This document shows positions 6,001 through 40,922 of a DNA stretch of 51,123 bases, piece after piece. This DNA comes from a virus (Duplodnaviria; Heunggongvirae; Uroviricota; Caudoviricetes): positions 1 to 51,123 of the IMG/VR virus record IMGVR_UViG_638341087_000015; one strand, 5' to 3'. The notes below the pieces were generated by a model. It had not been told where the DNA came from, did no database searches, and saw nothing but the letters and a program-made list of their open reading frames with translations. The translations under genes were made by a program, and so were the position numbers. Positions within the stretch are counted from its first letter, which is position 1, and every line of letters begins with the position of its first letter.

Positions 6001-6127
6001 ACTTAACGATCAGGTAGTCCAGAGTGGCACAGGTCGATTCAAAATCGTCGCTTGCCCACAGGACGACGTCAGGTTCACCGGATGATTTTTTCGCTTTCCG
6101 TAACAGGAAGAGTGGTTTTGTGCTCAT
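3056..6127 (-). CDS. recE: Exodeoxyribonuclease VIII-like protein (RecE-like), 1023 aa
   Basis: Large ORF upstream of the recT-position gene; C-terminal region carries a PD...D-x-K style motif (RPDIEI...ADVKS); central acidic region with a CNACG...CPDCG cysteine cluster. Confidence 0.65.
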
Positions 6128-8355: not shown

Positions 8356-8420
8356 CTATAGGTAATGCCTAATTGATTGTCAATAGGCTATGCCTAATGT
8401 TTTGAGCGTAACCTAATAGG
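8356..8420. promoter_or_regulatory. Left operator-like cluster (TAGGC-N3-GCCTA half-site repeats) downstream of racR
   Basis: 8380..8399 tcaataggctatgcctaatg is the exact reverse complement of 9021..9040; additional related sites at about 8356..8373 and 8409..8420. Confidence 0.55.
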
Positions 8421-8492
8421 TGATGACGACAGGAGAAAGTGATGGGGAGTTAAATAACGGAATCCAGGAGTTTTCCGTCAGACCATATAAGT

Positions 8493-16112: not shown

Positions 16113-16457
16113 TAACACTTCCTTAATTTTCCCTTAACAATTTAGGGTGCTAAACTTTTTTGCGCAGTTTACACAAAAAAATAGTGCGTACGCAAAAACT
16201 ATCTAACATGATGAGCTTTAACCGGGAAATTTGTATATGTTGTGAGCATAAAGTTGGCTGAGAAATTTAAAACGGGTAGAATGACTGCGGGTGCTTGAGG
16301 CTATCTGCCTCGGGCATGAACACCAAAGGCAGATAGAGAAAAGCCCCAGTTAACATTACGCGTCCTGCAAGACGCTTAACATTAATCTGAGGCCAATTTC
16401 ATGCTTTGCACATGTAGGTTAGCCTCTTACGTGCCGAAAGGCAAGGAGAAGCAGGCT

Positions 16458-16613
16458 ATGAAGCAGCAAAAGGCGATGTTAATCGCCCTGATCGTCATCT
16501 GTTTAACCGTCATAGTGACGGCACTGGTAACGAGGAAAGACCTCTGCGAGGTACGAATCCGAACCGGCCAGACGGAGGTCGCTGTCTTCACAGCTTACGA
16601 ACCTGAGGAGTAA
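16458..16613 (+). CDS. hok: Hok/Gef family type I toxin (51 aa)
   Basis: MKQQKAMLIALIVICLTVIVTALVTRKDLCEVRIRTGQTEVAVFTAYEPEE matches my recollection of HokD/RelF; AAGGAG RBS; GC-rich structured leader and trailer typical of hok mRNAs. Confidence 0.85.
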   Translation: MKQQKAMLIALIVICLTVIVTALVTRKDLCEVRIRTGQTEVAVFTAYEPEE

Positions 16614-17679: not shown

Positions 17680-17969
17680 TGGTGGATTTACGTAAAGCGG
17701 CGCGGGGGCAGATGTGCACCGTCAGAATTCCTGGCTACTGCAATCACGATCCGGAAACGTCTGTGCTGGCGCATTACCGACTGGCGGGAACGTGCGGAAC
17801 AGCGACAAAACCACACGATATGCAGGCGGCGATTGCCTGTAGCTCATGCCACGATCTAATCGACGGGCGGGTAAAAACCATCGATTACACCAAAGAAGAA
17901 TTACGCCTGATGCATGCAGAAGGTGTTCTTCGCACACAAGAAATCTGGAGAAAGGAGGGATATTTATGA
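17679..17969 (+). CDS. Nin-region protein YbcO-like (96 aa, Cys-rich)
   Basis: 96 aa with CxxxxC/CSSCH motifs; start overlaps the previous stop (TAATG); stop overlaps the Q start (ATGA). Confidence 0.5.
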   Translation: MVDLRKAARGQMCTVRIPGYCNHDPETSVLAHYRLAGTCGTATKPHDMQAAIACSSCHDLIDGRVKTIDYTKEELRLMHAEGVLRTQEIWRKEGYL

Positions 17970-18508
17970 TTTACCCAACGAATACAGGAAAAAGCGGAGA
18001 ACACCTTCGTCTCACCACGCTGGAAAGTGTCTGGATTCAGGGAAAACTACGTATGTGGGGGCGCTGGTCGTATATTGGCGGCGGTAAGACGGGGAATATG
18101 TTCAACCAGTTGTTGGCCTCTAAAAAGCTGACAAAAACGGCAATTAACGAGGCGCTCCGGAGGATGAAAAAAGCAGGTCTGAACAAGTCTGAACTTGAGG
18201 CTTTTTTGCGGGATATGATTAACGGTAAGCAAAAGAGCTGGCTGGCGCATTGTACTGATGCAGAGGCGTTATGTATTGATCGGGTCATAAGTCAGGTGCT
18301 GGCAGAGCATCCAGGATTGATTAGCGTCCTTCGGCAACGGTATGAGGGGCGGGGGATGACCAAACGCAAAATGGCTGAATTGCTAAATGATGCACACCCA
18401 GAGTGGTGTTTTAGCACATGCGAAAAGCGAATTGCTAATTGGTTGGCCGTTGCTGAGTATGCGCTATACATTCCCATGCGAGAATCATTCTCTCAAAAAA
18501 CGGCTTGA
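17966..18508 (+). CDS. Putative late-gene antiterminator Q (180 aa)
   Basis: ATG at 17966 preceded by AAGGAGGG; last gene before the tRNAs and lysis cassette, the canonical Q position. Confidence 0.5.
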   Translation: MIYPTNTGKSGEHLRLTTLESVWIQGKLRMWGRWSYIGGGKTGNMFNQLLASKKLTKTAINEALRRMKKAGLNKSELEAFLRDMINGKQKSWLAHCTDAEALCIDRVISQVLAEHPGLISVLRQRYEGRGMTKRKMAELLNDAHPEWCFSTCEKRIANWLAVAEYALYIPMRESFSQKTA

Positions 18509-18861: not shown

Positions 18862-18937
<76 letters not shown>

Positions 18938-18940
18938 TAT

Positions 18941-19015
<75 letters not shown>

Positions 19016-19381
19016 GCATTTGAAACAAGCCTTATTGTATTACGGCACTGGCGTATTTTTTTATTACGTGGGAGCAGGTTGTTTTGAAAAAGCATTCTGT
19101 TCTCTGGCTATGATTTGAGGCCGGGTGTAGCCTCAGTGCTGATTTTTTTACGGCAGCAGAATGGTGCATTATCGGTGGAGATTTTGTATTTCCTGGCAGG
19201 GTCGGTGATGCATCATTCTGGTGTTGTAAATCGCACCACAGAGGCGCTCCTCAGTGCGAGGGTGGTTTAAAGAGTCGGTTTAGCGGGAAACCACAGTATC
19301 CATACAGCACGGAATACTTCGGGAGGCACCCGACGCCTCGGTTTAATAACAATTAAAAAATTCATCCCTTGCATTGACCAA

Positions 19382-19406
19382 CCGCCATATCTGGCGGTTT
19401 TTTTTA
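19382..19406 (+). terminator. Rho-independent terminator
   Basis: ccgcca-tatc-tggcgg hairpin followed by a run of eight T. Confidence 0.6.
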
Positions 19407-19794
19407 TTCCTTTCTCAGGACAAAAAAAGACACGAGCATCCAGGAATACTCGTGGGACAACGTCCTTTAGATAGCAATTTGCGAGAGGGTGAAAAGTAGC
19501 GCGGTCGTCGGATTAAGACCGCGGGACAAAGTCCATGAAGAATAATAAGTATTGGCCCCCTTCTGGGGACATGTTCATACTACTAAGCTTCAGAAGTGGT
19601 TTAAATCATCAAATTAACCTTAATTTACGATAAGTCTTATTTCATTTCTTTGCGCCACATCTGGCGCGCATCAAATAACGCCACGCAAAGGGCATCTGCG
19701 GATGCCGGTGCTTTTGACGGGGTGTTTTTTACGGGCCGCTGGTGGCCATTTTTTGTTTCCATTACACAGCGCCCGCATCTGCGAGGTGGGGGTT

Positions 19795-22563: not shown

Positions 22564-22700
22564 TATATGGCTGATTTATAATTGTGAGTTTAATATTATA
22601 TTGACTCACTCATTGATCCAATACCTAACTTTACCAGCAACACCTCCGCCCCCAGTAGCACTGGCTGCTGGGGTGCGTTTTATTCATAAAGCAAGGCTGT

Positions 22701-26983: not shown

Positions 26984-28390
26984 ATGGCTGATATATCAAC
27001 ACCCAACCTCGACTATAACGATATGCTGGAGGCGTGGGATATTAACGACGCATTGATGGGCGGTACGCTTGAAATGCGCAGGCAGGGGGAAAATTATCTC
27101 CCCAAATGGCCTAATGAAGATGAAGACGCTTATAAAAAACGCCTGTCTGTGGCTACGCTACTTCCTGTGTATGAAGAAAGCATCAAACAAAATATTGGGC
27201 GCATATTTGCAGAGCCGACAGTATTGAGTGAGGAAACGCCGGAAAAAATCAGGGAATATGCAGAAAATATCGACATGGAGGGGAGCCGACTGGATGTGTG
27301 GGCGCAGCAATTTTTCAGTCTCGCATTTCAGTATGGTGTGGCACATGCGCTGGTGGACTATCCACGAACGGATATGAACGAGATTCGGACAAAAGCCGAT
27401 GAAAACGCGGCCGGTGGTCGCCCGTACGTTACGATGCTGAATCCACGCCAGGTTATTGGATGGAAATCGAAAGTTGAAAAAGGGAAAGTTGTTCTCACTG
27501 ATTTGCGTATAAAAGAGGTCATCATTATTGATGGTGATGATTTCGGGCAGAAGAAGGTGGAGCAGATCCGCCATATTATGCCCCGTCGAGTAGAAATTTA
27601 TCGACGCAGCGAAGGTACTAATGGCGAATCTGTCTGGATGCTTCATGAGTCATGGAATACCAGCCGTGATGATATTCCTCTGGTAACACTGTATACGAAG
27701 AAAACAGGGTTTATGCGTGGTACACCGCCATTGCTTAATCTTGGCTTGCTGAATATCAAGCACTGGCAAAGCCAGAGCGAGCAGGACAATATTCTTCATG
27801 TTGCCCGCGTTCCATTGCTGGTGGCCTACGGGCTGGACAGGAATGAAGAACTGACGGTTGGTGCATCCACCGCTACGATTTTTGAGGACAGAACAAAAAA
27901 TGGCCTCGAATATGTTGAACATAGTGGCGCAGCGATAGAATCTGGCGAAACATCACTTGAGAAGCTGGAAAATCAGATGCGTCATGCCGGCGCTAAACTT
28001 CTGCGGGCTGAAAATACATCCACCAAATCTGTTGATCAGACTAATGAAGAGCGGATGCAGGAACACTCGCCGCTTTATACAATGGCGAACTCCCTCGAAG
28101 ATGCCCTCGATAATATTCTCCAGATAATGGCGGAATGGAGCGGAGAGAGTTGCGGTGGCAATGTGGATGTGCGCACTGAACTGGATGTATCTGCCCAGGT
28201 GTTTGACTCATCCTCCGCGCTGGCTGTTCAGTCATTGCGTCAGGGCGGTGATATACGTCAGATTGATGCGGTTCGGGTGTTGCAGGCGTTGAAATTTATC
28301 GATCAGGATTCCCGTCCAGAGGAAGTGATCGATGAATTAAAAAATCAGAGTGTAATGCTGATGGAAATCAATGATGCAAACCGTGAATGA
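26984..28390 (+). CDS. Portal protein
   Basis: 468-aa ORF directly after the terminase large subunit. Confidence 0.7.
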   Translation: MADISTPNLDYNDMLEAWDINDALMGGTLEMRRQGENYLPKWPNEDEDAYKKRLSVATLLPVYEESIKQNIGRIFAEPTVLSEETPEKIREYAENIDMEGSRLDVWAQQFFSLAFQYGVAHALVDYPRTDMNEIRTKADENAAGGRPYVTMLNPRQVIGWKSKVEKGKVVLTDLRIKEVIIIDGDDFGQKKVEQIRHIMPRRVEIYRRSEGTNGESVWMLHESWNTSRDDIPLVTLYTKKTGFMRGTPPLLNLGLLNIKHWQSQSEQDNILHVARVPLLVAYGLDRNEELTVGASTATIFEDRTKNGLEYVEHSGAAIESGETSLEKLENQMRHAGAKLLRAENTSTKSVDQTNEERMQEHSPLYTMANSLEDALDNILQIMAEWSGESCGGNVDVRTELDVSAQVFDSSSALAVQSLRQGGDIRQIDAVRVLQALKFIDQDSRPEEVIDELKNQSVMLMEINDANRE

Positions 28391-29486
28391 ACGGCTGCGT
28401 GATGAATCAATTGCTCATGCAGTCTGGATATCCCGCTATAGCACTGGTGTGGCTGCCAGAATGGTGAAAATACTGAATGACAGCGATGCGGAGCTTACAG
28501 CTCGCCTGCTGGTAGCACTGGACAGCCTCGATCCTGGTAGTTTTACCGTTACGCGCCTGGAGTCACTTCTGGCGAGTGTCAGAGAGGTTAACCGCGCTGC
28601 TATTAACAGCATGTTTACCAGTCTCTCCGGAGAGCTGAACGAGCTGGCAATTTATGAGGCTGGTTATCAGTTAAGTCTGTTTGATTCTCTGCTACCTGAT
28701 TTTGTTGCTGATGTTCACCCTCTGGTTGGTATATCTTCTGATGCACTTTACGCCGCTGCAATGGCGCGACCATTCCAGGGACGACTGCTCAGTGAGTGGG
28801 CCTCGGATCTTGAGGCGGATCGGCTCAGACGCATAACAAATACGGTGCGTCAGGGTTTTTTGCTGGGGGATACCAATGAGCAGATCGCAAGAAAAATTCG
28901 GGGACATGTCAGCAAGGGATTTCAGGATGGTGCATTGCAGATGAGCCGGGCTAATGCGGCCAGCATTGCAAAAACAGCGGTTGGACATCTTGCTGCTACT
29001 GCCCGTGAGAGTTTTGCCAGCGCGAATAATGATTTGATTAAGGGTAAGCAATGGTTATCAACGCTTGATAATCGTACTACGCCACAATGTCGAATCAGGG
29101 ATCGCCTCAAATATACGCTGGATAATAAACCTGTAGGTCACAGTGTGCCTTATTTGCATGGGCCGGGAAAAATTCATTTCTGCTGCCGCTCAACGGAAAC
29201 GTTCATTCTGAAATCAGCGAAGGAACTGGGTATTGATGTTCGTGATATTTCCCCGGCTGAGCGGGCCAGCATGGATGGCGTGGTGGCCGGAGATACAACC
29301 TACAGGGAATGGTTTTTGCGTCAGCCTTACACCAGACAAAAACAGATTGTGGGGGAAACCCGGGCAAAGCTGATTCGGGATGGCGGTATGTCGCCAGATG
29401 AATTTTACACCGATAAAGGCGAATGGCTGACGCTGAAGCAACTCCGTGAGCGTGATGCACAGGTATTCAGAAAAGCAGGGATTTAA
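28371..29486 (+). CDS. Head morphogenesis / minor head protein
   Basis: 371-aa ORF after portal, overlapping its end. Confidence 0.55.
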   Translation: MMQTVNERLRDESIAHAVWISRYSTGVAARMVKILNDSDAELTARLLVALDSLDPGSFTVTRLESLLASVREVNRAAINSMFTSLSGELNELAIYEAGYQLSLFDSLLPDFVADVHPLVGISSDALYAAAMARPFQGRLLSEWASDLEADRLRRITNTVRQGFLLGDTNEQIARKIRGHVSKGFQDGALQMSRANAASIAKTAVGHLAATARESFASANNDLIKGKQWLSTLDNRTTPQCRIRDRLKYTLDNKPVGHSVPYLHGPGKIHFCCRSTETFILKSAKELGIDVRDISPAERASMDGVVAGDTTYREWFLRQPYTRQKQIVGETRAKLIRDGGMSPDEFYTDKGEWLTLKQLRERDAQVFRKAGI

Positions 29487-29505
29487 ATAAATCATTTATT
29501 ACAAC

Positions 29506-29530
29506 AGGCTACCTTCGGGTGGCCTTTTTT
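29506..29530 (+). terminator. Intrinsic terminator (UUCG tetraloop hairpin plus T-run)
   Basis: aggctacc-ttcg-ggtggcct followed by tttttt, just after the head morphogenesis stop. Confidence 0.55.
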
Positions 29531-29590
29531 ATTGCTGCGATCCGGATGGTGAGCAGCGTAACTGTCGGAAGACTTAAACCAGGTACTAAT

Positions 29591-30355
29591 ATGAAACTGA
29601 AAACGGTCGAGATTAACGGAAAACAATACGCAGAAATTGATACTGCTGGCCTGCCAGTTTATGTGCACGACGATGGTAAAGAAATCGGCTTCGATGCACC
29701 GCTGGCGATAAAAAAAATTACAGAGCTTAATGGCGAGGCAAAAAATCATCGCCTGGCTAAAGAAGCTGCAGAGGAAAAACTGGCTAAGTTTGCCGCTATC
29801 GAAGACCCGAAGAAGGCGATCGAGGCACTGGAAATGCTGTCAAAAATCGACCAGAAAAAGCTGATCGATGCGGGACAGGTTGACCAGGTTAAGGCAGAAA
29901 TTACGAAAAATTTTCAGCAGCAATTAGATGAAGAAAAGCAACGCTCTCAGATGCTGGAGACGCAGCTTTACGATTCTATGATTGGCGGTAGTTTTGCGGG
30001 TTCAAAATATATTGCCGATAAAATTGCGATCCCGGCAGATTTATTACAAGCCCGCTTCGGGCAGGCATTCAAAGTGGAAGAAGGGAAGATCGTTGCTTAT
30101 GACGCTTCCGGCAACAAAATTTATTCCCGCGCGAAGCCTGGCGAACTGGCGCAGTTTGATGAGGCGCTGGAGTTCCTCGTCGAAAATTACCCTCAGAAAG
30201 ACTACATCCTGAAAGCCAGTGGCAACAATGGCGGCGGCTCCCGTCCGACACAGCATGATGTTGGTCAGAAAACGATGAAACGCTCTGCTTTTGATGCACT
30301 GGATGTTGCAGGTAAGCAAAACGCATTGAAAGACGGTATCACAATTGTTGATTAA
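29591..30355 (+). CDS. Putative head scaffolding protein
   Basis: Alpha-helical, charged protein between the morphogenesis and capsid genes; the tracked start at 29519 lies inside the terminator hairpin. Confidence 0.45.
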   Translation: MKLKTVEINGKQYAEIDTAGLPVYVHDDGKEIGFDAPLAIKKITELNGEAKNHRLAKEAAEEKLAKFAAIEDPKKAIEALEMLSKIDQKKLIDAGQVDQVKAEITKNFQQQLDEEKQRSQMLETQLYDSMIGGSFAGSKYIADKIAIPADLLQARFGQAFKVEEGKIVAYDASGNKIYSRAKPGELAQFDEALEFLVENYPQKDYILKASGNNGGGSRPTQHDVGQKTMKRSAFDALDVAGKQNALKDGITIVD

Positions 30356-30453
30356 CACATTTGTCAGCTTCCGGATGGGAGCTGGTGTCAGGGCTGGATA
30401 GCTCATTACTCCATCTATTCACAATTACGCAAATTTTTAAGGAATATTTAATT

Positions 30454-31593
30454 ATGGCTGGAAATACCCTGACCGGGTTGATCCCGACTATTTATACCGC
30501 CCTGGATATTGTATCCCGTGAGCAGGTAGGTTTTATCCCTGCGGTAGCAAAAAACGCAAAAGCTGACGCCGCAGCAAAAGATCAGACGGTAACCGCGCCA
30601 GTTGCGCCTGAGGCGAAAACCGAAGATATCGTACCGGGGCCGTCAGCTCCGAATACCGGTGATCAAAATATTGGCACTGTTGATGTGAAAATTACTAAAT
30701 CCAAAATGGCACCGGTTAAATGGAATGGTGAAGAACAACTGGCTCTTGGCCCTTCAGGGACTTACAACACCATTCTGGCTGATCAGTTCAAGCAGGCTTT
30801 TCGCGCCCTTGCAAACGAGGTTGAGGCTGATCTTGGTGCGTTGTATTTCGGTGCTTCCCGCGCCGTGGGAACCGCAGGGACAACGCCGTTTGGTGTTAAA
30901 GATGATCTTTCTGATGCTGCTCTGGCTCGTCAGGTTCTGGAGGATAACGGCGCACCGACAACCGATCTGCAGATGGTGCTTGGCTCCACTGCCATTGCTA
31001 ATTTGCGCGGAAAACAGTCTGTACTGTTTAAAGTGAATGAATCCGGCACTGAACAGCTACTGCGTGAGGGCGTGTTGGGGCGTCTGGAGGGATTCAATAT
31101 TCACAGTTCGGCAGGTGTAAAACGAGCGCCAAAGGTTGCTGCAACTGGTTATCTCGTGAATGGCGAGAAAAAAGAAGGCGATGTTCTTATTTCCATTGAT
31201 ACTGGTTCGGGGAGTATTTCTGCAGGCCAGATTGTTACGTTCGCTGGCGATCCGAATCAGTATGTTGTGGCAGCAGCGACCAGCAATCTGATTACTCTTG
31301 CAGCGCCCGGACTGCGTCAGGATCTGGCCGATGATACTGCAATCACAGTTGTTGGCTCCTTTACTGCAAATATGGCGTTTGATCGCAACGCGTTTCTGCT
31401 GGCATCCCGTACTCCGGCAATGCCGGAAGGTGGCGATAATGCTGATGATGTAATGAATGTTACGGACCCGATTTCAGGGATTACGTTCCAGATTGCACTG
31501 TATCGTCAGTATCGCCAGGTGCGCTATGAAGTTGGACTGGCATGGGGTGTTTCATCAGTGAAGCCGGCACATGGTTGTCTGATTCTTGGTTAA
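30454..31593 (+). CDS. Major capsid protein
   Basis: About 380 aa following the scaffold gene; ATG at 30454 with AAGGA upstream; followed by a terminator. Confidence 0.6.
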   Translation: MAGNTLTGLIPTIYTALDIVSREQVGFIPAVAKNAKADAAAKDQTVTAPVAPEAKTEDIVPGPSAPNTGDQNIGTVDVKITKSKMAPVKWNGEEQLALGPSGTYNTILADQFKQAFRALANEVEADLGALYFGASRAVGTAGTTPFGVKDDLSDAALARQVLEDNGAPTTDLQMVLGSTAIANLRGKQSVLFKVNESGTEQLLREGVLGRLEGFNIHSSAGVKRAPKVAATGYLVNGEKKEGDVLISIDTGSGSISAGQIVTFAGDPNQYVVAAATSNLITLAAPGLRQDLADDTAITVVGSFTANMAFDRNAFLLASRTPAMPEGGDNADDVMNVTDPISGITFQIALYRQYRQVRYEVGLAWGVSSVKPAHGCLILG

Positions 31594-31603
31594 ACATTCA
31601 AAC

Positions 31604-31623
31604 GGGGCTTCGGCCCCATTTTT
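31604..31623 (+). terminator. Intrinsic terminator (UUCG tetraloop) after the major capsid gene
   Basis: ggggc-ttcg-gcccc followed by atttttaa. Confidence 0.55.
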
Positions 31624-31635
31624 AATGGAGGGCAT

Positions 31636-31812
31636 ATGGCCGGATTAACTAAAGAGCAAAGAGCACAGCGTGAAGCCGCACAAAAAACGCAAATTGAGTT
31701 AGTGGTTATGGTGACCGATTATCAGATGTTTCCCGGCGCACCAACTATCGCTAATGTTCATCCTGATGAAGTTGACAACTGGAAGGCTATGGGCTGGAAA
31801 ACTCAGGAGTAA
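31636..31812 (+). CDS. Small hypothetical head-region protein (58 aa)
   Basis: Not in ORF track; GGAGGG RBS; manual translation MAGLTKEQRAQREAAQKTQIELVVMVTDYQMFPGAPTIANVHPDEVDNWKAMGWKTQE. Confidence 0.4.
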   Translation: MAGLTKEQRAQREAAQKTQIELVVMVTDYQMFPGAPTIANVHPDEVDNWKAMGWKTQE

Positions 31813-31815
31813 CAC

Positions 31816-32211
31816 ATGATCACTTACGTGACCTGTGATGACGTTGATAATGCGTTTGGGAACGCCTGGACGAGTGAGAACGCTAAAAATAAAGCTGTTT
31901 TAATGGCTAATGCCTGGCTTAATGGCTTCAACCTGAAAATTAACCCATCCCGTATTCCGGAAGAGGTAAAACTTGCGGGAGCATATGCAGCCAGAATTGC
32001 CTCATTCGGTAAGTTGTTTCAGCAGAAAAATGATTCTGGCGTTGTTATCAGTAAAGCCGTGTCGGCTGACGGGGTCAGTGTATCGAAATCATTTGCTGAA
32101 TTGCCAGCAAACAGCACTGCATTGCTTGAACCCGATTTACAGCTTGCGATAGCACTGCTGAAACCGTACGGACTTAGTCGCTCACAAGTCAGGGTTGTGA
32201 GGGGGGGATGA
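31816..32211 (+). CDS. Head-tail joining / head completion protein (putative)
   Basis: Position in the morphogenesis operon. Confidence 0.4.
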   Translation: MITYVTCDDVDNAFGNAWTSENAKNKAVLMANAWLNGFNLKINPSRIPEEVKLAGAYAARIASFGKLFQQKNDSGVVISKAVSADGVSVSKSFAELPANSTALLEPDLQLAIALLKPYGLSRSQVRVVRGG

Positions 32212-32594
32212 TGGGGCTTCGTGAAGAGATTCAGTCAGAGGTTGCCGCTGCTTTTGATGAGGATTTAGCAGACGCCGTGAGTGATTTTTCTGGTTCTTAC
32301 GTTACGCACCGGAACTGGGATCCTGTGACGGAAACTGGCGGCGAATCTACAGCAACCTATACCGGGCGAGGCGTGTTGACGCGTTATAAGCTGGGCAGAA
32401 TTGATGGGATTAATATTTTGCATGGTGACCTTAAATTAACAGCTCTGGTATGCGAGGTTACGGATAAACCCGCTGTCGGCCATATTATTGAGATTTATGA
32501 TCCTGTATCAAGGCAGTTGCAACGATACGAGGTAATTACAGCGAGTGTAGATCCTTCCGCATCAGTTTACTCAATCCAGTTAAGGAGAGCGTAA
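32208..32594 (+). CDS. Head-tail joining protein (putative)
   Basis: Overlapping start-stop coupling in the morphogenesis operon. Confidence 0.4.
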   Translation: MMGLREEIQSEVAAAFDEDLADAVSDFSGSYVTHRNWDPVTETGGESTATYTGRGVLTRYKLGRIDGINILHGDLKLTALVCEVTDKPAVGHIIEIYDPVSRQLQRYEVITASVDPSASVYSIQLRRA

Positions 32595-32975
32595 ATGGCA
32601 AAGGCATGGGATATCGAACCGTCAATATTTGCCGGGATGATTGAGGAAGATGTGGGGCTGAAAATTCGCTACATCGCTATGCAGATTCTTACTGCTATTG
32701 ATATTGCTGCTCCGGTTGATACCGGACGTTTCAGAAATAACAACCTGGTGTCGTTACAGCATCCCGATGTTGGTATATCTGATAACGTGGATCCGAACGG
32801 TACGATTGCGGTTCAGCGTGGGATCGGGGTTATTTCGAAAGCTGCAAATTACGGAGTTATTTATATCCAGAATAACCTTCCTTATGCAGAGGCTCTTGAA
32901 AACGGTCATTCACAACAAGCGCCAACTGGCGTGTATGCCAACGCTTTTCATGGTGTTTTACAGGCTTACAAATGA
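32595..32975 (+). CDS. Tail component (putative)
   Basis: Position in the morphogenesis operon. Confidence 0.4.
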   Translation: MAKAWDIEPSIFAGMIEEDVGLKIRYIAMQILTAIDIAAPVDTGRFRNNNLVSLQHPDVGISDNVDPNGTIAVQRGIGVISKAANYGVIYIQNNLPYAEALENGHSQQAPTGVYANAFHGVLQAYK

Positions 32976-33364
32976 CGTTTACTGAAATCAGAAATACGGT
33001 TATTTCCAGAATGACGGCACAGACGATTATTGATGGAAAAGACGTATTGTATCCGAACGCGCCAACGTTCGATCCTTCCGGTAAGTTAATCTGGGCGCGG
33101 TTAAGTAATATTCCCGGGCAGGCTGGAGTTAATGAAATTGGCGCGGGGCCGATTGTTTATCGCACGGGGATAATCATTATTCAGTTATTTGTCCCCGCAG
33201 GTTCTGGTTCAAAACTCATTACTGAGACAGCCGATAAATTGCGGGAACTGTTTGAGTTTCAGGATGACGATCGTCTCAGTTACCAGGCTGTTTCCTCAAT
33301 AGCCGTTGGCGAAAAGAATGGCTGGTTCCAGCTTAATCTTCAAATTCCATATCGCGCGCTCTAG
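32972..33364 (+). CDS. Tail completion protein (putative)
   Basis: Position immediately upstream of the major tail protein gene. Confidence 0.4.
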   Translation: MTFTEIRNTVISRMTAQTIIDGKDVLYPNAPTFDPSGKLIWARLSNIPGQAGVNEIGAGPIVYRTGIIIIQLFVPAGSGSKLITETADKLRELFEFQDDDRLSYQAVSSIAVGEKNGWFQLNLQIPYRAL

Positions 33365-33390
33365 CGCAATTAATGACATAGGAGGCTCCT

Positions 33391-34353
33391 GTGAGTTCAG
33401 GTGCAAAGGTTATCTCGGCATTTATCCGGGAGACGGTTGCAGGCACTACGCCAGCAAGTGGTGACTGGAGTTTATTAAAACGCACAAGCTGGGGAGTAAA
33501 ACCCACCCAGAATAAAGGCGAAAATAATGAGATTGGTGGCTCCCGGATGGCTCAGGGGGCGACGCCTGGCACTGTGGATGTCGGCGGTGATGTTGGTACC
33601 AAATTTCGCTGGGGTCAACATGATGATTTTCTTGCATCCTGTTTCGGCGCGGAATGGTCAGGCGATTCTCTGACAATGGGGAATGAGCGAATAACATTTT
33701 CTCTGGCGACCTATGCGTCCGATGTCGGAATTGCCTCTGTCGTCAGAGGAGCGCAGGTTGGCTCATGGAAAATGCAGATCCCTAACGACGGCGATATTAC
33801 AGCGACCGTAACCTTTGCCGGACTGGACTGGGAATCAAAGGCCGATGATACGAATTTTATCAAAGACGAACCTGTGGATAGTGCAGGAAAGCTACGTTAT
33901 TCGTTTAAGGAGGTTTCAGCAGTAAGCCTGAATGGTGTTGCCGGAGGTAACGGTTTTTGTATCGACAGTTTTGATATTCAGTTCGATAACAAACTCCAGA
34001 CACAGCGTTGTATCGGGACTGGCTCGCCTTATGCAGGAGCAAATATTCCGACTACTTTTACACCGTCCGGTACGGTGACGCTTTCATGGTCTAAAGCCGC
34101 GTGGGAAATCTGGAGTAAAACACTGACTGGAGAAACAGTTCCGTTCAGCTTCACGCTTTCGAATGGAGAGGGGGCATACACTTTCAGTTTCCCGAAGGTT
34201 CAGGTGTCAGGTGAATGGCCTGACGGCGGTAATACCGATATTATCCAGGTCCAGTTGAGTATTACCGCTGCTGACGAAGCGCCAACTATCACCAGAAAAA
34301 AAGCTTCCCCGGCTGCAGTGATTGCAAAAGCCAGTGCTGAGTCGATTAGTTGA
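33391..34353 (+). CDS. Major tail protein (putative tail tube)
   Basis: 320-aa ORF directly upstream of the tail assembly chaperone pair. Confidence 0.5.
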   Translation: MSSGAKVISAFIRETVAGTTPASGDWSLLKRTSWGVKPTQNKGENNEIGGSRMAQGATPGTVDVGGDVGTKFRWGQHDDFLASCFGAEWSGDSLTMGNERITFSLATYASDVGIASVVRGAQVGSWKMQIPNDGDITATVTFAGLDWESKADDTNFIKDEPVDSAGKLRYSFKEVSAVSLNGVAGGNGFCIDSFDIQFDNKLQTQRCIGTGSPYAGANIPTTFTPSGTVTLSWSKAAWEIWSKTLTGETVPFSFTLSNGEGAYTFSFPKVQVSGEWPDGGNTDIIQVQLSITAADEAPTITRKKASPAAVIAKASAESIS

Positions 34354-34413
34354 TTTTCCGTTATTCCCCCTGTGGTATTGCGCTACAGGGTGGTGTTTTG
34401 AATGAGGTTATAG

Positions 34414-34965
34414 ATGTTTATTCTTGAACAGAAAACTATCATCGGTGGAGAACGCTGGTTTACGCCAATGAAGGACTTAGAACCTATTGCTGGGTTACAA
34501 CTGTTGGTGGCAAGCAGTGATAATGATCAGTATCGCTCCCGTAATGCATTAATCCGTCGCCACATTGAGAAAATGGATGCCAGTTTGCATGTCGGAACGA
34601 AGGCGTTTGATATTGCAAAGGTCGTCGAGGTGGACTCTGTTGATGATTTACTCATTGATAACGCCGCTCGTTATCTGCTGAAAGACTGGAAAGGGGTTGG
34701 AGAGCTGATAGATGGTGTTGAGGTCGCGCTGGAATATACACCAGAAAGAGGTGCTGAGCTGCTCAAGCAGAATCCAGAGTTGTACTGGCAAATCCTTGCA
34801 GAAGCCGCCAGAATCGCCCAGGGAAAAGAGCAGCAAAAGCAGGATACGATAAAAAAGCCATTGCCGCCCAGCGGTGGATATCGGAGTTCGGGGGAGAAAA
34901 GGGTGAAAAGGCAAGGTGGAAACGAGAAAAGCTCAGGTTGCCGCCGCTCCCGGAGCCAGAAATAG
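34414..34965 (+). CDS. Tail assembly chaperone (lambda G analogue)
   Basis: Immediately upstream of the tape measure gene; contains slippery heptamers near its 3-prime end. Confidence 0.6.
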   Translation: MFILEQKTIIGGERWFTPMKDLEPIAGLQLLVASSDNDQYRSRNALIRRHIEKMDASLHVGTKAFDIAKVVEVDSVDDLLIDNAARYLLKDWKGVGELIDGVEVALEYTPERGAELLKQNPELYWQILAEAARIAQGKEQQKQDTIKKPLPPSGGYRSSGEKRVKRQGGNEKSSGCRRSRSQK

Positions 34966-35171
34966 ACCCGGTTATTAGGGAATTGTTGTACGCCTATTCG
35001 GTGATATCCCGTGCCAGGCGTTATGCTGGAATGGCTGGGGTGCCTTTGCCTTTATCTCTGTCAGAGATAAATGAATATTTAGCCACTCATCCGGTATTGA
35101 TTGAGCGCGATGAATTTGAAGCAGTGATCTTTGCACTGGATGACCAGTATTTTCAGGAGCAGTGTGTGTAG
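34414..35171 (+). CDS. Tail assembly chaperone frameshift product (lambda G-T analogue)
   Basis: -1 shift at 34851..34857 or 34821..34827 joins the chaperone frame to ORF 34938..35171. Confidence 0.45.
34851..34857 (+). other. Programmed -1 ribosomal frameshift slippery heptamer A_AAA_AAG
   Basis: Heptamer in the X_XXY_YYZ register of the chaperone frame; a second candidate G_GGA_AAA lies at 34821..34827; the -1 frame stays open to 35171. Confidence 0.5.
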
Positions 35172-35291
35172 TTGTTAATTACGTACACTCTGTTACAGCG
35201 ATGTGATAGTGTCTTTAATTAAATCGATGATGCTCCTGGAGAAAAGCATTGCGTGGCCTCGTAATCGCTATATCTACTATTATGTCGCCTG

Positions 35292-35317
35292 AAACCCACT
35301 TCGGTGGGTTTTTTTTG
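35292..35317 (+). terminator. Intrinsic terminator-like hairpin (UUCG tetraloop plus T-run) upstream of tape measure
   Basis: aaacccac-ttcg-gtgggttt followed by a T-run, in the 165-bp gap between the chaperone pair and tape measure gene. Confidence 0.5.
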
Positions 35318-35336
35318 TTGTCAGGAGTTTTAATAA

Positions 35337-38300
35337 ATGGCAGAGCAGACCTCACGTCTTGCAATAATTATTGATAGCTCTGGAGCGAAAAATAATGCTG
35401 ATAATCTGACCTCATCATTAGTCAAAATGACGCAGGCCGGGGAAACTGCTGCAAATAGCGCAGGGAAAGTGACTAAGGCAACAGAAGACGAGAAGAACGC
35501 GCTCGCAAAATTAAAAGCAGCTATTGATCCAGTTGGTGCCGCAATTGATACTGTCGGTCGACGCTATTCTGAATTAAAGAAATATTTCGATAAAGGGCTT
35601 ATTGATAAAGAAGAATATGAATTTCTTGCCCGTAAACTTAATGAAACCACAGAGGAATTGAGCGGGGTTGCGCAAGCGCAGAGAGAGGCCGAGAAGGCCG
35701 GAAAACTTGCTGCCGCCCAGCAGGAAGCGCAGGCTCAGGCCTTTCAAAGAATGCTGGACAAGATCGACCCTCTGGCTGCGGCGCTAAGAAATCTTGATCA
35801 ACAGCAGGATGAACTTAATGCTGCACTTTTTTCCGGGAAAATAAATGGCTCTCAGTTTGATAATTACAGCCGAAAAATACAGGAAACGCGGCGAGAGCTA
35901 ACAGGAGAGGCTCAGGCAGAACGAGAAGCAGCAAAAGCGCATGATGAACAAGTTGCTGCTTTGCAACGTCTGATTGCTCAACTCGATCCTGTTGGAACAG
36001 CTTTTAACCGCCTGACAGAGCAGCAAAAGCAACTCAGCGAAGCAAAAGCCAAGGGGATGCTTTCTCCTGAAATGTATGAGGAGCTTTCAGGAAAACTCCA
36101 TGCTATGCGGAGTGAGCTTGAGGCTACTCAATCGCAACTCAGCAAAACCGGAATGTCAGCAAAACAAACAGCTTTTGCTATGCGCATGTTGCCTGCACAA
36201 ATGACGGATATTGTTGTTGGGTTGTCCACTGGTCAGTCGCCATTTATGGTGTTAATGCAGCAGGGCGGCCAGCTAAAAGATATGTTCGGTGGGATTGGCC
36301 CGGCGATCAAAGGTGTTGGTTCTTATGTGCTGGGATTAATTAATCCTTTTACCCTGGCCGCAGCAGCCGTTGGCGCCTTGGGGCTAGCTTACTATAAAGG
36401 TTCTCAGGAGCAGGACGAATTTAATAAATCTCTTATTCTTACCGGAAATCAGTTGGGGACAACCAGCGGGCAATTAGCCGATATAGCTCAACGTGCCGGG
36501 GATGCTGCTGATTCGACAACTGGCGCTGCGGCGGCAGTATTAAACCAGCTTGTGCGTTCGGGAAAGGTCGCGAGCAGTTCGCTGGAGCAGGTGACGACAG
36601 CGATAGTAAAAACGAGCGAATTAACTGGAATATCGACCGATCAACTGGTTAATAATTTCAATGAAATTGCAAAGGATCCTGTCAGTGCCATATCAAAACT
36701 TAATGATCAGTACCATTTTCTGACACTGGCGACTTATAACCAGATTAAGGCGCTACAGGATGAAGGGAACCAGCAGGAGGCGGCTAGGGTAGCTTCTGAC
36801 GTTTATTCTCAGGCTTTACAGCAGCGTACATCAGAAATCCAGCAAAATCTTGGGCTTCTTGAAAAAGCCTGGGATGGTTTAGCTGGTACAGCGAAAAAAG
36901 CTTGGGATGCAATGCTTGATGTTGGTCGTGTGTCTGGTGGAAATGAGCGTATCACTCAAATCCGCAAGGAGCTTGATTGGATTGATAACGCTGTCGGTGG
37001 AAAAACTGTTTTTGCCTCACGTCGAAAAGAGCTTGAGCAAGAGTTAAACATTCTTCAGCTAACTATGGCGGCTCAGGCAGATATTACTGGGGCCATTTCT
37101 GCAGCAAGTAAAGCTGAGCAAGAACGAATTCAGACTCAACAGGAGGCCGATCGTGTTAACCAACAGTATCTGACTAATGCAGAAAAAAGAAGTAAAGCAA
37201 TCAGGCAGCAGAAGAAGTTTTTGGATGCAGGGGCTATTAGTGAAGAGCAATATAATAATAATATTTCTCGCATTAATGAATTATATAAAGATCCAAAATC
37301 ACCAAAAACACGGAATTATTCAGATGATGCCGCCCAACGAATGATTGACCATCTGAATCAACAGAATGCGTTACTAAGTTCACAAGCTGAATTGACAGTT
37401 AAATTAAGTTCCTCTGAGCAGGAACTGGTTAAGTGGCGCCAGCAAATAGTCGATCTTGAATCTCGTCCGACATCAAAATTAACTAAGGATCAGAAATCGC
37501 TTCTCTTACACCGGGAAGAAATAACCGCGTTGATGGAGAAAAATGTTGCGATTGAAAAAAATAACAGGCTAATCAAGGAGTCAGCCGAAATAGCCGCATG
37601 GCGTAGTTCATTGCAGGCTTCTATTGATAATCATCAGCAGGGGTATGACATTCAGATCGCTGGTTATGGACTTGGCGATAAAAATCAGCAACGTCAGCAG
37701 GAATTACTGCGGATTGAACGTGAATATAACAACCGGCGTCTGCAACTTGAACGTGACTATGCGGATAAATCTCGTGGAATGTCTGAACGTGTTTTTCAGG
37801 AAAAAATACAGGCCCTGAATGATGCTGTGGAGCGGGAAAAAGAAATTATCAGGCAGAAAAATGAGCAGCTCGATATTCAGGCTGGAGACTGGGTAAGTGG
37901 GGCGTCCCAAGGATTCAATAACTGGTTGGATAACACTAAGGATATCAGCGGGCAGATAAAATCAACCACGACTCAGATGTTTGATGGGATGACAGATGCG
38001 CTTGGTGATTTTGTCACGACAGGTAAGGCAAATTTTCGTTCTTTCGCTACCTCCGTGATTTCAGATCTTAGCAGAATAGCATTAAAGGCTTCAATTACCG
38101 GGATTTTCGACAGCATTAGCAACAGTTCTTCTGGGGGAATTTTAGGAACTATCGGAAGTGCTGTTAGTAAATTTATTCCTAATGCAAAGGGCGGTATTTA
38201 TGAGTCTCCATCATTGAGTACATATTCAAACGGTATTTATGATTCCCCGCAATTTTTTGCTTTTGCAAAAGGTGCTGGTGTTTTTGGTGAGGCTGGACCG

Positions 38301-38546
38301 GAAGCTATTATGCCATTAACACGAACTTCCGATGGTTCTCTTGGTGTCAGGGCGATTAATAATAAAGACGGTAATGGAGGCGGAGACATTAATTACTCTC
38401 CTGTATATCAAATTACTATCAAAAATGACGGACAGAATGGAGAGATTGGCCCTCAGGCAATTAGAACACTTATGGGAATGGTTGATCAGCGAGTGCAGGG
38501 CACTCTGTTAAATATGCGACGTGATGGAGGAATATTAAGTGGCTGA
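35337..38546 (+). CDS. Tail tape measure protein (1069 aa)
   Basis: Very long alpha-helical, Ala/Gln-rich protein after the chaperone pair; CAGGAG RBS. Confidence 0.85.
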
Positions 38547-39573: not shown

Positions 39574-40317
39574 ATGACACAGACAGATTCAGCGATTCTG
39601 GCGCACGCCCGGCGATGTGCGCCAGCGGAGTCGTGCGGCTTCGTGGTGAGAACGCCTGAGGGGGAAAGATATATTCCCTGCGTGAATATCTCCGGTGAGC
39701 CGGAGGAGTATTTCAGGCTGTCGCCGGAGGACTGGCTGCAGGCAGAAATGCAGGGTGAGATTGTGGCGCTGGTCCACAGCCACCCCGGTGGCCTGCCCTG
39801 GCTGAGTGAGGCTGACCGGCGGCTGCAGGTGCAGAGTGATTTGCCATGGTGGCTGGTCTGCCGGGGGGCGATTCACAAGTTCCGCTGTGTGCCACATCTT
39901 ACCGGGCGGCGCTTTGAACACGGGGTGACGGACTGTTACACGCTGTTCCGGGACGCTTACCATCTGGCGGGAATTGAGATGCCGGATTTTCATCGTGAGG
40001 ATGACTGGTGGCGTAACGGCCAGAATCTCTATCTGGATAATCTGGAGGCCACAGGGCTGTATCAGGTGCCGTTGTCAGCGGCGCAGCCGGGCGATGTGCT
40101 GCTGTGCTGTTTTGGTTCATCGGTGCCGAATCATGCCGCCATTTACTGTGGTGACGGCGAGCTGCTGCACCATATTCCTGAACAACTGAGCAAACGAGAG
40201 AGGTATACCGACAAATGGCAGCGACGCACACACTCCCTCTGGCGTCATCGGGCATGGCACGCATCTGCCTTTACGGGGATTTACAACGATTTGGCCGGCG
40301 CATCGACCTTCGTGTGA
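39574..40317 (+). CDS. Tail assembly protein K (lambda-like)
   Basis: HSHP metal-binding motif and Cys/His hydrolase-like C-terminus; alternative start at 39532. Confidence 0.7.
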   Translation: MTQTDSAILAHARRCAPAESCGFVVRTPEGERYIPCVNISGEPEEYFRLSPEDWLQAEMQGEIVALVHSHPGGLPWLSEADRRLQVQSDLPWWLVCRGAIHKFRCVPHLTGRRFEHGVTDCYTLFRDAYHLAGIEMPDFHREDDWWRNGQNLYLDNLEATGLYQVPLSAAQPGDVLLCCFGSSVPNHAAIYCGDGELLHHIPEQLSKRERYTDKWQRRTHSLWRHRAWHASAFTGIYNDLAGASTFV

Positions 40318-40862
40318 AAACGGGGGCTGAAGCCATCCGGGCACTGGCCACACAGCTCCCGGCGTTTCGTCAGAAACTGAGCGACGGCTGGTATCAGGTA
40401 CGCATTGCCGGGCGTGATGCAGGTGAAACTGAATTATCAGCCCGTCTTAATGAACCGCTGGCAAATGGTGCCGTGATCCACATTGTGCCGCGTCTGGCGG
40501 GAGCCAAAAGTGGCGGTCTTTTTCAGGCGGTGCTGGGGGCGGCGCTGATTGCGGTGGCATGGTGGAACCCCGCAGGTTGGTTGGGGGCTGCCGCAATTAC
40601 AGGAATGTATGGTGCGGGGGCCAGTATGATCCTTGGCGGTGTGGCCCAGATGCTGGCCCCTAAACCCAGAACTCCCCGCACACAGACAACGGATAACGGT
40701 AAGCAGAACACGTATTTCTCGTCACTGGACAACATGGTTGCCCAGGGCAATGTTCTGCCTGTTCTGTACGGTGAAATGCGCGTGGGGTCACGGGTGGTTT
40801 CTCAGGAGATCAGCACGGCAGACGAGGGGGATGGTGGTCAGGTTGTGGTGATTGGTCGCTGA
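40215..40862 (+). CDS. Tail assembly protein I (lambda-like)
   Basis: Overlaps K by about 100 nt as in lambda; Gly/Ala-rich hydrophobic C-terminus. Confidence 0.7.
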   Translation: MAATHTLPLASSGMARICLYGDLQRFGRRIDLRVKTGAEAIRALATQLPAFRQKLSDGWYQVRIAGRDAGETELSARLNEPLANGAVIHIVPRLAGAKSGGLFQAVLGAALIAVAWWNPAGWLGAAAITGMYGAGASMILGGVAQMLAPKPRTPRTQTTDNGKQNTYFSSLDNMVAQGNVLPVLYGEMRVGSRVVSQEISTADEGDGGQVVVIGR

Positions 40863-40922
40863 TGGAACATGTTTTATGTGAAACCGCCTGCGGGCGGTTT
40901 TGTCGTTTATGGAGCATGAGGA

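Follow-up and report, generated by a model that had tools for sequence, protein, structure and literature searches.

Why should a phage late operon carry hairpins that look like transcription terminators between the genes for its head and its tail? The DNA analyzed here (IMG/VR virus record IMGVR_UViG_638341087_000015, 51,123 nucleotides, hereafter the window) holds a Rac-family lambdoid Escherichia coli prophage, and an earlier note on its sequence had pointed to three hairpins of one design in the late morphogenesis operon, suggesting that they are either read through with the help of the antiterminator Q or set the stoichiometry of capsid and tail transcripts. We found all three on the + strand in intergenic positions, each with a GC-rich stem, a C(UUCG)G loop, and a T-run:

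29506-29530, + strand: site 1, AGGCTACC-TTCG-GGTGGCCT at 29506-29525, then TTTTT to 29530
31604-31623, + strand: site 2, GGGGC-TTCG-GCCCC at 31604-31617, then A plus TTTTT to 31623
35291-35317, + strand: site 3, (G)AAACCCAC-TTCG-GTGGGTTT(T) at 35291-35312, T-run to 35316

Site 1 begins 20 nt past the stop of the head-morphogenesis gene (29486) and sits between that gene and the leader of the scaffold gene; site 2 begins 11 nt past the end of the capsid gene (stop at 31593), and directly beyond it comes GGAGG, the ribosome-binding site of the gene that follows; and site 3 lies about 20 nt before the ATG of the tape-measure gene (35337), at the 3′ end of the 165-nt spacer that separates this gene from the tail chaperone gene. 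We think it probable that the three are genuine Rho-independent terminators within a set of at least eight late-operon hairpins, that Q overrides them, and that the hairpins persist in the transcript as RNA barriers.

The folding energies, proposed as a check when the sites were first pointed out, are −13.8, −11.1, and −12.5 kcal/mol for sites 1, 2, and 3 (by RNA folding; relative to dinucleotide shuffles, the z-scores are −3.9, −2.3, and −3.2). The stems have 8, 5, and 9 bp with 5, 5, and 4 GC pairs, all three loops are tetraloops, and a C-G pair closes each of them (ACC-TTCG-GGT, GGC-TTCG-GCC, and CAC-TTCG-GTG); the T-runs are T6 at site 1, A plus T5 at site 2, and T8 at site 3. Exactly three TTCG-loop hairpins with at least three GC pairs and a T-run exist on the two strands of the whole window, while the same design arose on average 0.02 times per window in 300 dinucleotide-preserving shuffles, with a maximum of one. 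The trio is also within the top five matches of a generic terminator scan of 22-42 kb. Short GC hairpins do arise by chance, and the generic scan itself returned 30 hairpins in 20 kb when 19.4 were expected, so that chance inverted repeats without function had to be considered. The excess over the shuffles, the intergenic position of all three hairpins, and their common strand speak against chance, and the covariation and deep conservation described below refute it, leaving this account practically no probability.

What did not hold up is the idea of a special trio. The three do share the UUCG design, as the earlier note had it, but they were picked by their loop alone, and at least five more terminator-like hairpins lie on the same strand of the window:

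19380-19407, + strand: hairpin AACCGCCA-UAUC-UGGCGGUU plus U8, a candidate promoter-proximal late terminator (tR′-like), downstream of two tRNA genes
22650-22683, + strand: strong hairpin with an ACUG loop and a weak T-run, after a 491-amino acid open reading frame (ORF), −25.2 kcal/mol
34368-34400, + strand: terminator-like hairpin CCCUGUGGU-AUUGC-GCUACAGGG, then UGGUGUUUUG, after the tail-tube gene, −16.7 kcal/mol
40878-40912, + strand: terminator-like hairpin, loop UGCG, flanked by the tail genes 40215-40862 and 40923-44336, −17.6 kcal/mol
44357-44385, + strand: terminator-like hairpin GGGCGCCA-GAAA-UGGCGCCU plus U6, after a 1137-amino acid tail gene, −17.3 kcal/mol

Terminator-like hairpins occupy 7 of the 10 late-operon gaps of at least 40 nt. 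The UUCG loop is conserved at site 2 only and varies at sites 1 and 3. According to PMC3972237, which cites Tuerk 1988 and d'Aubenton Carafa 1990, C(UUCG)G hairpins are unusually stable and are used by Rho-independent terminators. We conclude that the C(UUCG)G design is a generic extra-stable cap and is not particular to this operon. The earlier interpretation is thus supported in part: the terminator anatomy, the conservation, and the presence of a Q gene bear it out, and the singling out of a UUCG trio does not stand.

The relatives compared were 80 related viral contigs from IMG/VR, 4 related phages, and 80 species-level genome loci (capsid alignment); single loci are cited below by L numbers. 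Conservation in related phages was one of the points on which the proposal had been made to depend, and all three sites are conserved, site 3 by position. Together with their full anatomy and their placement on the same strand as the late genes, this supports the claim that they are intrinsic (Rho-independent) terminators.

At site 1, all 360 of 360 pair cells are standard-paired among 20 distinct sequences (26-56% in slid controls), three of the terminator's eight pairs have double compensatory changes, and every sequence keeps the T6 run. In the wider comparison, the run (T6-T7) is invariant in Enterobacterales and present in 16/36 distant loci, and the loop reads TTCG, TCCG, TCAG, TCCA, TTAG, or CACG. 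The terminator is near-universal among relatives whatever the inserts, and it stays beside the scaffold leader despite extra upstream ORFs in HK639, L065, L079, and Acinetobacter and Pasteurella phages. A U-rich single-stranded stretch follows it, and beyond that a 5′ hairpin. A promoter between site 1 and the scaffold gene was considered and rejected: we found no sigma-70-like site there, and the conservation takes the form of RNA-type covariation, not of a DNA word.

Two further observations concern this junction. HK639 (L083) has at 4785-4901 an unannotated 38-amino acid ORF (MPQIMVGLVSIALGLAAIVISSRSIYEMWRFMREQKNK) with one hydrophobic helix and a basic tail, which lies in a moron-like position between the head-morphogenesis gene and the equivalent of the site 1 terminator; L065 and L079 have larger inserts in its place. 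In L102 and L146, two arms on either side of the T-run are complementary, the 3′ one of the site 1 hairpin (GCGGCC) and the 5′ one of the first leader hairpin (GGCCGC), giving an alternative fold GCGGCC-UUUUUUAU-GGCCGC; this complementarity is absent in the window and may be incidental.

Site 2 shows a different pattern. Its core 14-mer, GGGGCTTCGGCCCC, is present in 74/80 viral contigs and 27/78 species-level loci, and the hairpin and its T-run part company with increasing distance:

Capsid identity at least 70%, 34 loci: hairpin with T-run in 30, hairpin without T-run in 2, UUCG-loop hairpin in 24
Capsid identity below 70%, 43 loci: hairpin with T-run in 9, hairpin without T-run in 20, UUCG-loop hairpin in 13

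The hairpin is thereby kept in 32/34 close and 29/43 distant loci, and eight distant loci have a canonical T-run at site 1 and none at site 2. Because the hairpin outlasts the T-run in distant loci, the hairpin itself is the conserved object at site 2, and its retention in sequences that lack the run points to a role of the hairpin itself.

Such a role could be extended to the whole set, the hairpins being mainly RNA-stability or processing elements that guard 3′ ends after endonuclease cleavage, with T-runs that are incidental or serve as cleavage sites. The distant loci agree with this, since 29 of the 43 keep the hairpin, 13 of the 43 have a UUCG-loop hairpin, and only 9 keep the T-run, as does the occurrence of GGGGC-UUCG-GCCCC in Acinetobacter, Castellaniella, Rhizobium, and Azotobacter elements at about 50% capsid identity; sites 1 and 2 also bracket two high-expression genes, and the U-rich single strand followed by a 5′ hairpin downstream of site 1 would suit processing. 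A pure exonuclease barrier, however, needs no T-runs, and these are widely kept: at site 1 to the extent given above, at site 2 as a T-rich tail in 30/34 closer loci, and at the site 3 position on all hairpins of relatives. We regard a mainly stabilizing function as quite unlikely for the set as a whole; among the sites, site 2 is the one that a pure stabilizer role fits best.

Beyond these elements, GGGGC-UUCG-GCCCC or a near variant, often without a T-run, stands right after the capsid stop at only about 50% capsid identity in Acidovorax and Pseudomonas elements as well; T2-type hairpins (hairpins of the site 2 type) in this place include L085 7156-7169 and those of L126, L134, L142, L150, and L157. 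This likeness may reflect either shared ancestry or convergence toward the most stable of minimal hairpins.

The comparison at site 3 concerns position more than sequence. In nearly every relative, whether its slot is empty or filled, a strong terminator closely precedes the ribosome-binding site of the tape-measure gene, with sequences unrelated between lineages. A TTCGCG is found at site 3 in the K-12 Rac remnant (ydaY-ynaA), which still holds the site, and in 22/80 IMG/VR loci; other relatives have unrelated hairpins. It was in the gap from the tail chaperone to the tape-measure gene that a moron was first described, and morons come with a terminator of their own (PMC3594210). Site 3, and perhaps site 1, might then be moron scars or parts left after gene loss, with no role in late-gene control. 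Several features are in keeping with this: the slot between the chaperone and tape-measure genes is a classic moron site (PMC3594210), occupied in HK97 by gp15 and its terminator; inserts of about 0.55-1.8 kb in the same slot of relatives are each closed by their own strong terminator; the 165-nt spacer is AT-richer than its surroundings (GC 0.39 vs 0.45-0.48 in the flanks); and extra ORFs lie upstream of site 1 in the phages and loci named above. Of the hallmarks of a moron, the slot thus has the 3′ terminator, at its 3′ end as in the gp15 type, and the deviating base composition; its own promoter and an accessory ORF are missing. There is no + strand sigma-70-like site within the spacer (35172-35336), and the only ORF in it, of 29 amino acids (35203-35292, GTG start, ending at the base of the hairpin), was rejected as a small gene: it lacks a ribosome-binding site and has an unconserved start, K-12 reading ATG where the window reads ATA. 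The annotated "hypothetical protein" of strain PD007 is not this ORF and is the end of the T frame. The terminators at sites 1 and 3 are present with or without inserts, which argues that they are resident features beside which morons land. We consider a scar origin improbable.

Four of the inserts in the site 3 slot (L028, L044, L048, and L056) end in ...W(M)TGIGYRF*, resembling a Lom/Ail-type outer-membrane protein, and L066, L077, L079, and L080 also have inserts there.

If the sites are terminators, the late operon would have to be transcribed past them, and the window encodes a protein suited to this upstream of the late genes:

17846-18508, + strand: Q-family late antiterminator gene (PHROG 753, 1.6e-79; Pfam DUF1133, 4.9e-107)

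Its match to Pfam Phage_antitermQ is 26.9 bits against a cut-off of 26. The presence of this gene makes read-through by Q, the first of the two alternatives originally offered, coherent and plausible. The second alternative was that the hairpins set stoichiometry; as leaky attenuators, they would partly stop even Q-modified polymerase, or whichever polymerase transcribes the operon, giving dosage steps from capsid to connector and from tail tube to tape measure. The placement of several hairpins suits such steps: site 2 comes after the gene whose product is the most abundant in the virion, the one at 34368 comes after the tube gene, and site 3 stands ahead of the gene of the low-copy tape measure; the imperfect U-run of site 2 is as expected of a leaky site. 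Against this, site 1, which has the best U-run, lies directly upstream of the scaffold and capsid genes, whose products are needed in the highest amounts, contrary to what stoichiometry would ask for, and a Q-family gene is present. Polymerase modified by Q runs past intrinsic terminators for tens of kilobases. For T7, terminators of low efficiency have been reported to balance expression, and such terminators are seen in LUZ7 (bioRxiv 10.1101/2022.03.18.484859); for phage L, partial termination is among the options that have been named (PMC8022706). We judge attenuation to be unlikely here.

The working that we favor, in which Q overrides true terminators, would run as follows. In the lysogen, RNA polymerase not modified by Q, whether from leaky, spurious, host read-through, or moron-driven transcription, would stop at the sites, which would keep the costly structural genes silent and insulate the insertion slots. 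After induction, Q-modified polymerase coming from the late promoter would read through all of them. The hairpins carried in the read-through RNA could then act as barriers to 3′-exonucleases and as processing boundaries, the scaffold-capsid segment, bracketed by sites 1 and 2, being the one most likely to be stabilized. The sites would differ in kind: site 2 would be an ancient element in which the hairpin itself is selected, site 1 a canonical terminator tied to the scaffold leader, and site 3 the terminator of the classic moron slot before the tape-measure gene.

Several points weigh against this working. The stabilizing role is argued from position and conservation only, and non-lambdoid relatives may have no Q, in which case read-through there needs another explanation. 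The U-run of site 2 is short and interrupted (A plus U5) and is weak or absent in many relatives, so site 2 may terminate poorly. Close relatives vary at site 3, with loop insertions, changed and in some cases weakened stems, and runs of T6 to T8, which suggests weaker constraint, and one variant of site 1, found in three related contigs, has an A.G mismatch in its stem. Finally, Term-seq data of K-12 (PMC7815308 supplement) contain no 3′ end at the site 3 remnant; we looked near 14264xx, ydaY, ynaA, and tmpR and saw an antisense entry in ynaA as the only one, and because the remnant is silent, this result is uninformative.

Comparison with other phages shows that the trio is real but ordinary, as like hairpins are present at matching junctions in lambda, HK97, P22, and HK639. 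The record of HK97 (NC_002167) has putative terminators after the major head gene (gp5) and before and after the major tail gene, and another at 8398-8422, after the gp15 moron and directly before the tape-measure gene, which matches site 3. The head module of HK97, however, is unrelated, having the HK97 fold and a protease but not a separate scaffold, and in place of UUCG its hairpins have GAAA or other loops. HK639 (NC_016158) has the same head module as the window (capsid identity 75%), with an annotated putative terminator (4901-4922) at the exact position of site 1 and others around the tail-tube gene; its post-capsid hairpin, GGGGGGGC-TTCG-GCCCC, exists as well and is unannotated in the record. 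Both phages have annotated terminators after their major tail genes, as the window has the hairpin at 34368. An Acinetobacter phage has a hairpin similar to site 2 at its post-capsid junction.

The closest counterpart of site 2 in sequence and place is in P22 (NC_002371), whose coat protein belongs to the same family as the capsid protein of the window. A stem_loop at 6102-6119, after gene 5, lies between the coat stop and the next ribosome-binding site, as site 2 does, and the record calls it similar in location to those of HK97 and lambda. The two are nearly the same, AGGGGC-UGCG-GCCCCU plus UUCUUUAUGGAG (DNA tail TTCTTTATGGAG) in P22 and GGGGC-UUCG-GCCCC plus AUUUUUAAUGGAGG in the window. 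P22 and L differ in being podoviruses, with no tail-tube or tape-measure junctions, and the scaffold gene of P22 has no leader, only a 13-nt gap, so that P22 has neither an equivalent of site 1 nor the GGAU-loop hairpins described below. Phage L has a terminator at the end of its procapsid module, within the late operon; the roles of such terminators are not known, and besides partial termination its authors considered the halting of transcription when there is no antitermination (PMC8022706). Lambda has an unannotated hairpin, AUGGCCC-UUCG-GGGCCAU plus UGUUUCUCUG, within the 41 nt that follow its major capsid gene E (E-FI), and another hairpin, with a T-run, separates its genes D and E. Its capsid genes are not homologous to those of the window, however, its T and H genes overlap, leaving no slot or terminator before the tape measure, and its Q is of a different sequence type from the Q protein of the window (DUF1133). 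Lambda Q makes late transcription terminator-resistant (PMC8022706). T7 and LUZ7 have leaky terminators within co-directional blocks, for which expression tuning was proposed (bioRxiv 10.1101/2022.03.18.484859); those phages differ in using their own or modified polymerases and in having measured termination efficiencies, whereas the window encodes a putative processive antiterminator.

The segment between sites 1 and 2 holds a second set of hairpins, in the leaders of the scaffold and capsid genes, which we consider the more novel observation:

29534-29557, + strand: scaffold leader hairpin 1, GCUGC..[CC-GGAU-GG]..GCAGC
29564-29573, + strand: scaffold leader hairpin 2, GUC-GGAA-GAC, upstream of the ATG at 29591
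30362-30387, + strand: capsid leader hairpin A, UGUCAGCUUCC-GGAU-GGGAGCUGGUG
30391-30404, + strand: capsid leader hairpin B, GGGCU-GGAU-AGCUC

They fill the 60 nt that lead from site 1 to the start codon of the scaffold gene, as well as the 98 nt that separate this gene from the capsid gene, and such hairpins also lie upstream of the scaffold and capsid genes in L083-L084 and L087-L166. Across 71 loci, they number 14.1 per kb of scaffold leader and 9.9 per kb of the gap before the capsid gene, compared with 0.46 per kb elsewhere, an enrichment of about 20-30-fold. GGAU and GGAA make up 44% of the tetraloops of leader hairpins and about 2% locus-wide, and GGAW is flanked by at least three complementary pairs in 61% of its occurrences in leaders and 6.4% elsewhere (odds ratio 23, from related loci that are not independent samples). 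In 24 capsid leaders, which span E. coli to Pseudomonas, Rhizobium, Azospirillum, and Cupriavidus and were aligned with MAFFT, double compensatory changes occur in 14 of 16 pairs, the GGA(U) loops are invariant, and 90% of cells are paired, compared with 35-50% in slid controls. The stems of the scaffold leaders covary too, with conserved GGAU/GGAA loops. The motif follows the scaffold type, being present in 57/61 loci with this scaffold and in 0/8 with another; it occurs in prophages of Entero-, Pseudomonas-, Beta-, and Alphaproteobacteria and is absent from P22.

At gathering thresholds, Rfam matched only RalA, sok, and two tRNAs in the whole window, and permissive Rfam searches of 29400-31700 and five related loci gave no credible match to the hairpins or leaders. 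The leader hairpins, which match no Rfam family, are probably a new RNA motif. Many capsid leaders also have a GGA within the ribosome-binding site, and GGA in hairpin loops together with a GGA-containing ribosome-binding site recalls the binding sites of CsrA/Rsm. The scaffold protein of P22 autoregulates post-transcriptionally (Casjens and Adams 1985; Wyckoff and Casjens 1985; both as reported in PMC5529062). Candidate binders of the leader hairpins are a host protein of the CsrA/Rsm type or, by analogy with P22, the scaffold protein itself. A tentative proposal, which we hold to be possible though somewhat short of likely, is that the scaffold and capsid genes bracketed by sites 1 and 2 form an ancient post-transcriptional cassette, in which the leader hairpins would be the operators of a regulator and the post-capsid UUCG hairpin a 3′ stabilizer.

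The trio adds one example to a known pattern, terminator-like hairpins having been flagged in late operons since HK97, P22, and lambda, and the role of such hairpins is still called unknown (PMC8022706). The comparison splits what is usually lumped together as "putative terminators" into three selective logics: a terminator on the scaffold leader, canonical in all relatives in which it was examined, an ancient post-capsid hairpin kept across very distant hosts even after loss of its U-run, and a terminator of a moron slot. Of wider interest, the GGAU-loop leader hairpins would, if the proposal is true, be a new regulatory RNA controlling the synthesis of procapsid proteins.

A 7-kb region of the element is matched in 1207/5426 complete E. 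coli genomes. PHROGs and Pfam searches show that the gene labels of the earlier note were correct, and the late operon reads as follows:

From 24605: small terminase (PHROGs/Pfam)
From 25671: large terminase (PHROGs/Pfam)
From 26984: portal (PHROGs/Pfam)
28371-29486: head morphogenesis, Mu F-like (PHROGs/Pfam)
29591-30355, + strand: scaffold-like gene (Pfam DUF6651), start by alignment with relatives
30454-31593, + strand: major capsid gene (P22 coat family, Pfam P22_CoatProtein), beginning MAGNTLTGL...
Downstream of 31593: connector and neck genes
33391-34353: tail tube
34414-35171: tail chaperone G/GT
35337-38546: tape measure

Two gene starts were corrected. The true start of the scaffold gene is the ATG at 29591; the GTG of the longest ORF (29519) falls within the site 1 hairpin, and the PHROG match of that long ORF begins only at residue 25. 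Likewise, the capsid gene starts at the ATG at 30454, the TTG of its longest ORF (30361) falling within the leader hairpins.

RNA genes of the window are the following:

1557-1735: RalA, antitoxin small RNA of the Rac RalR toxin (Rfam, 215 bits)
16289-16463: sok-type antitoxin RNA (Rfam, 116 bits)
18862-18937: tRNA-Thr(UGU), between the Q gene and the lysis genes
18941-19015: tRNA-Gly(UCC), between the Q gene and the lysis genes

With RalA and the sok-type RNA, the prophage has two RNA-antitoxin systems. Lambdoid phages of the Stx type also have tRNA genes in the region from Q to lysis. In the tail region, the chaperone ORF at 34414-34965 is overlapped by a −1 frame ORF at 34938-35171 (PHROG 1189), the usual G/GT arrangement for programmed frameshifting, and ydaY of K-12 is a C-terminal fragment of this tail chaperone.

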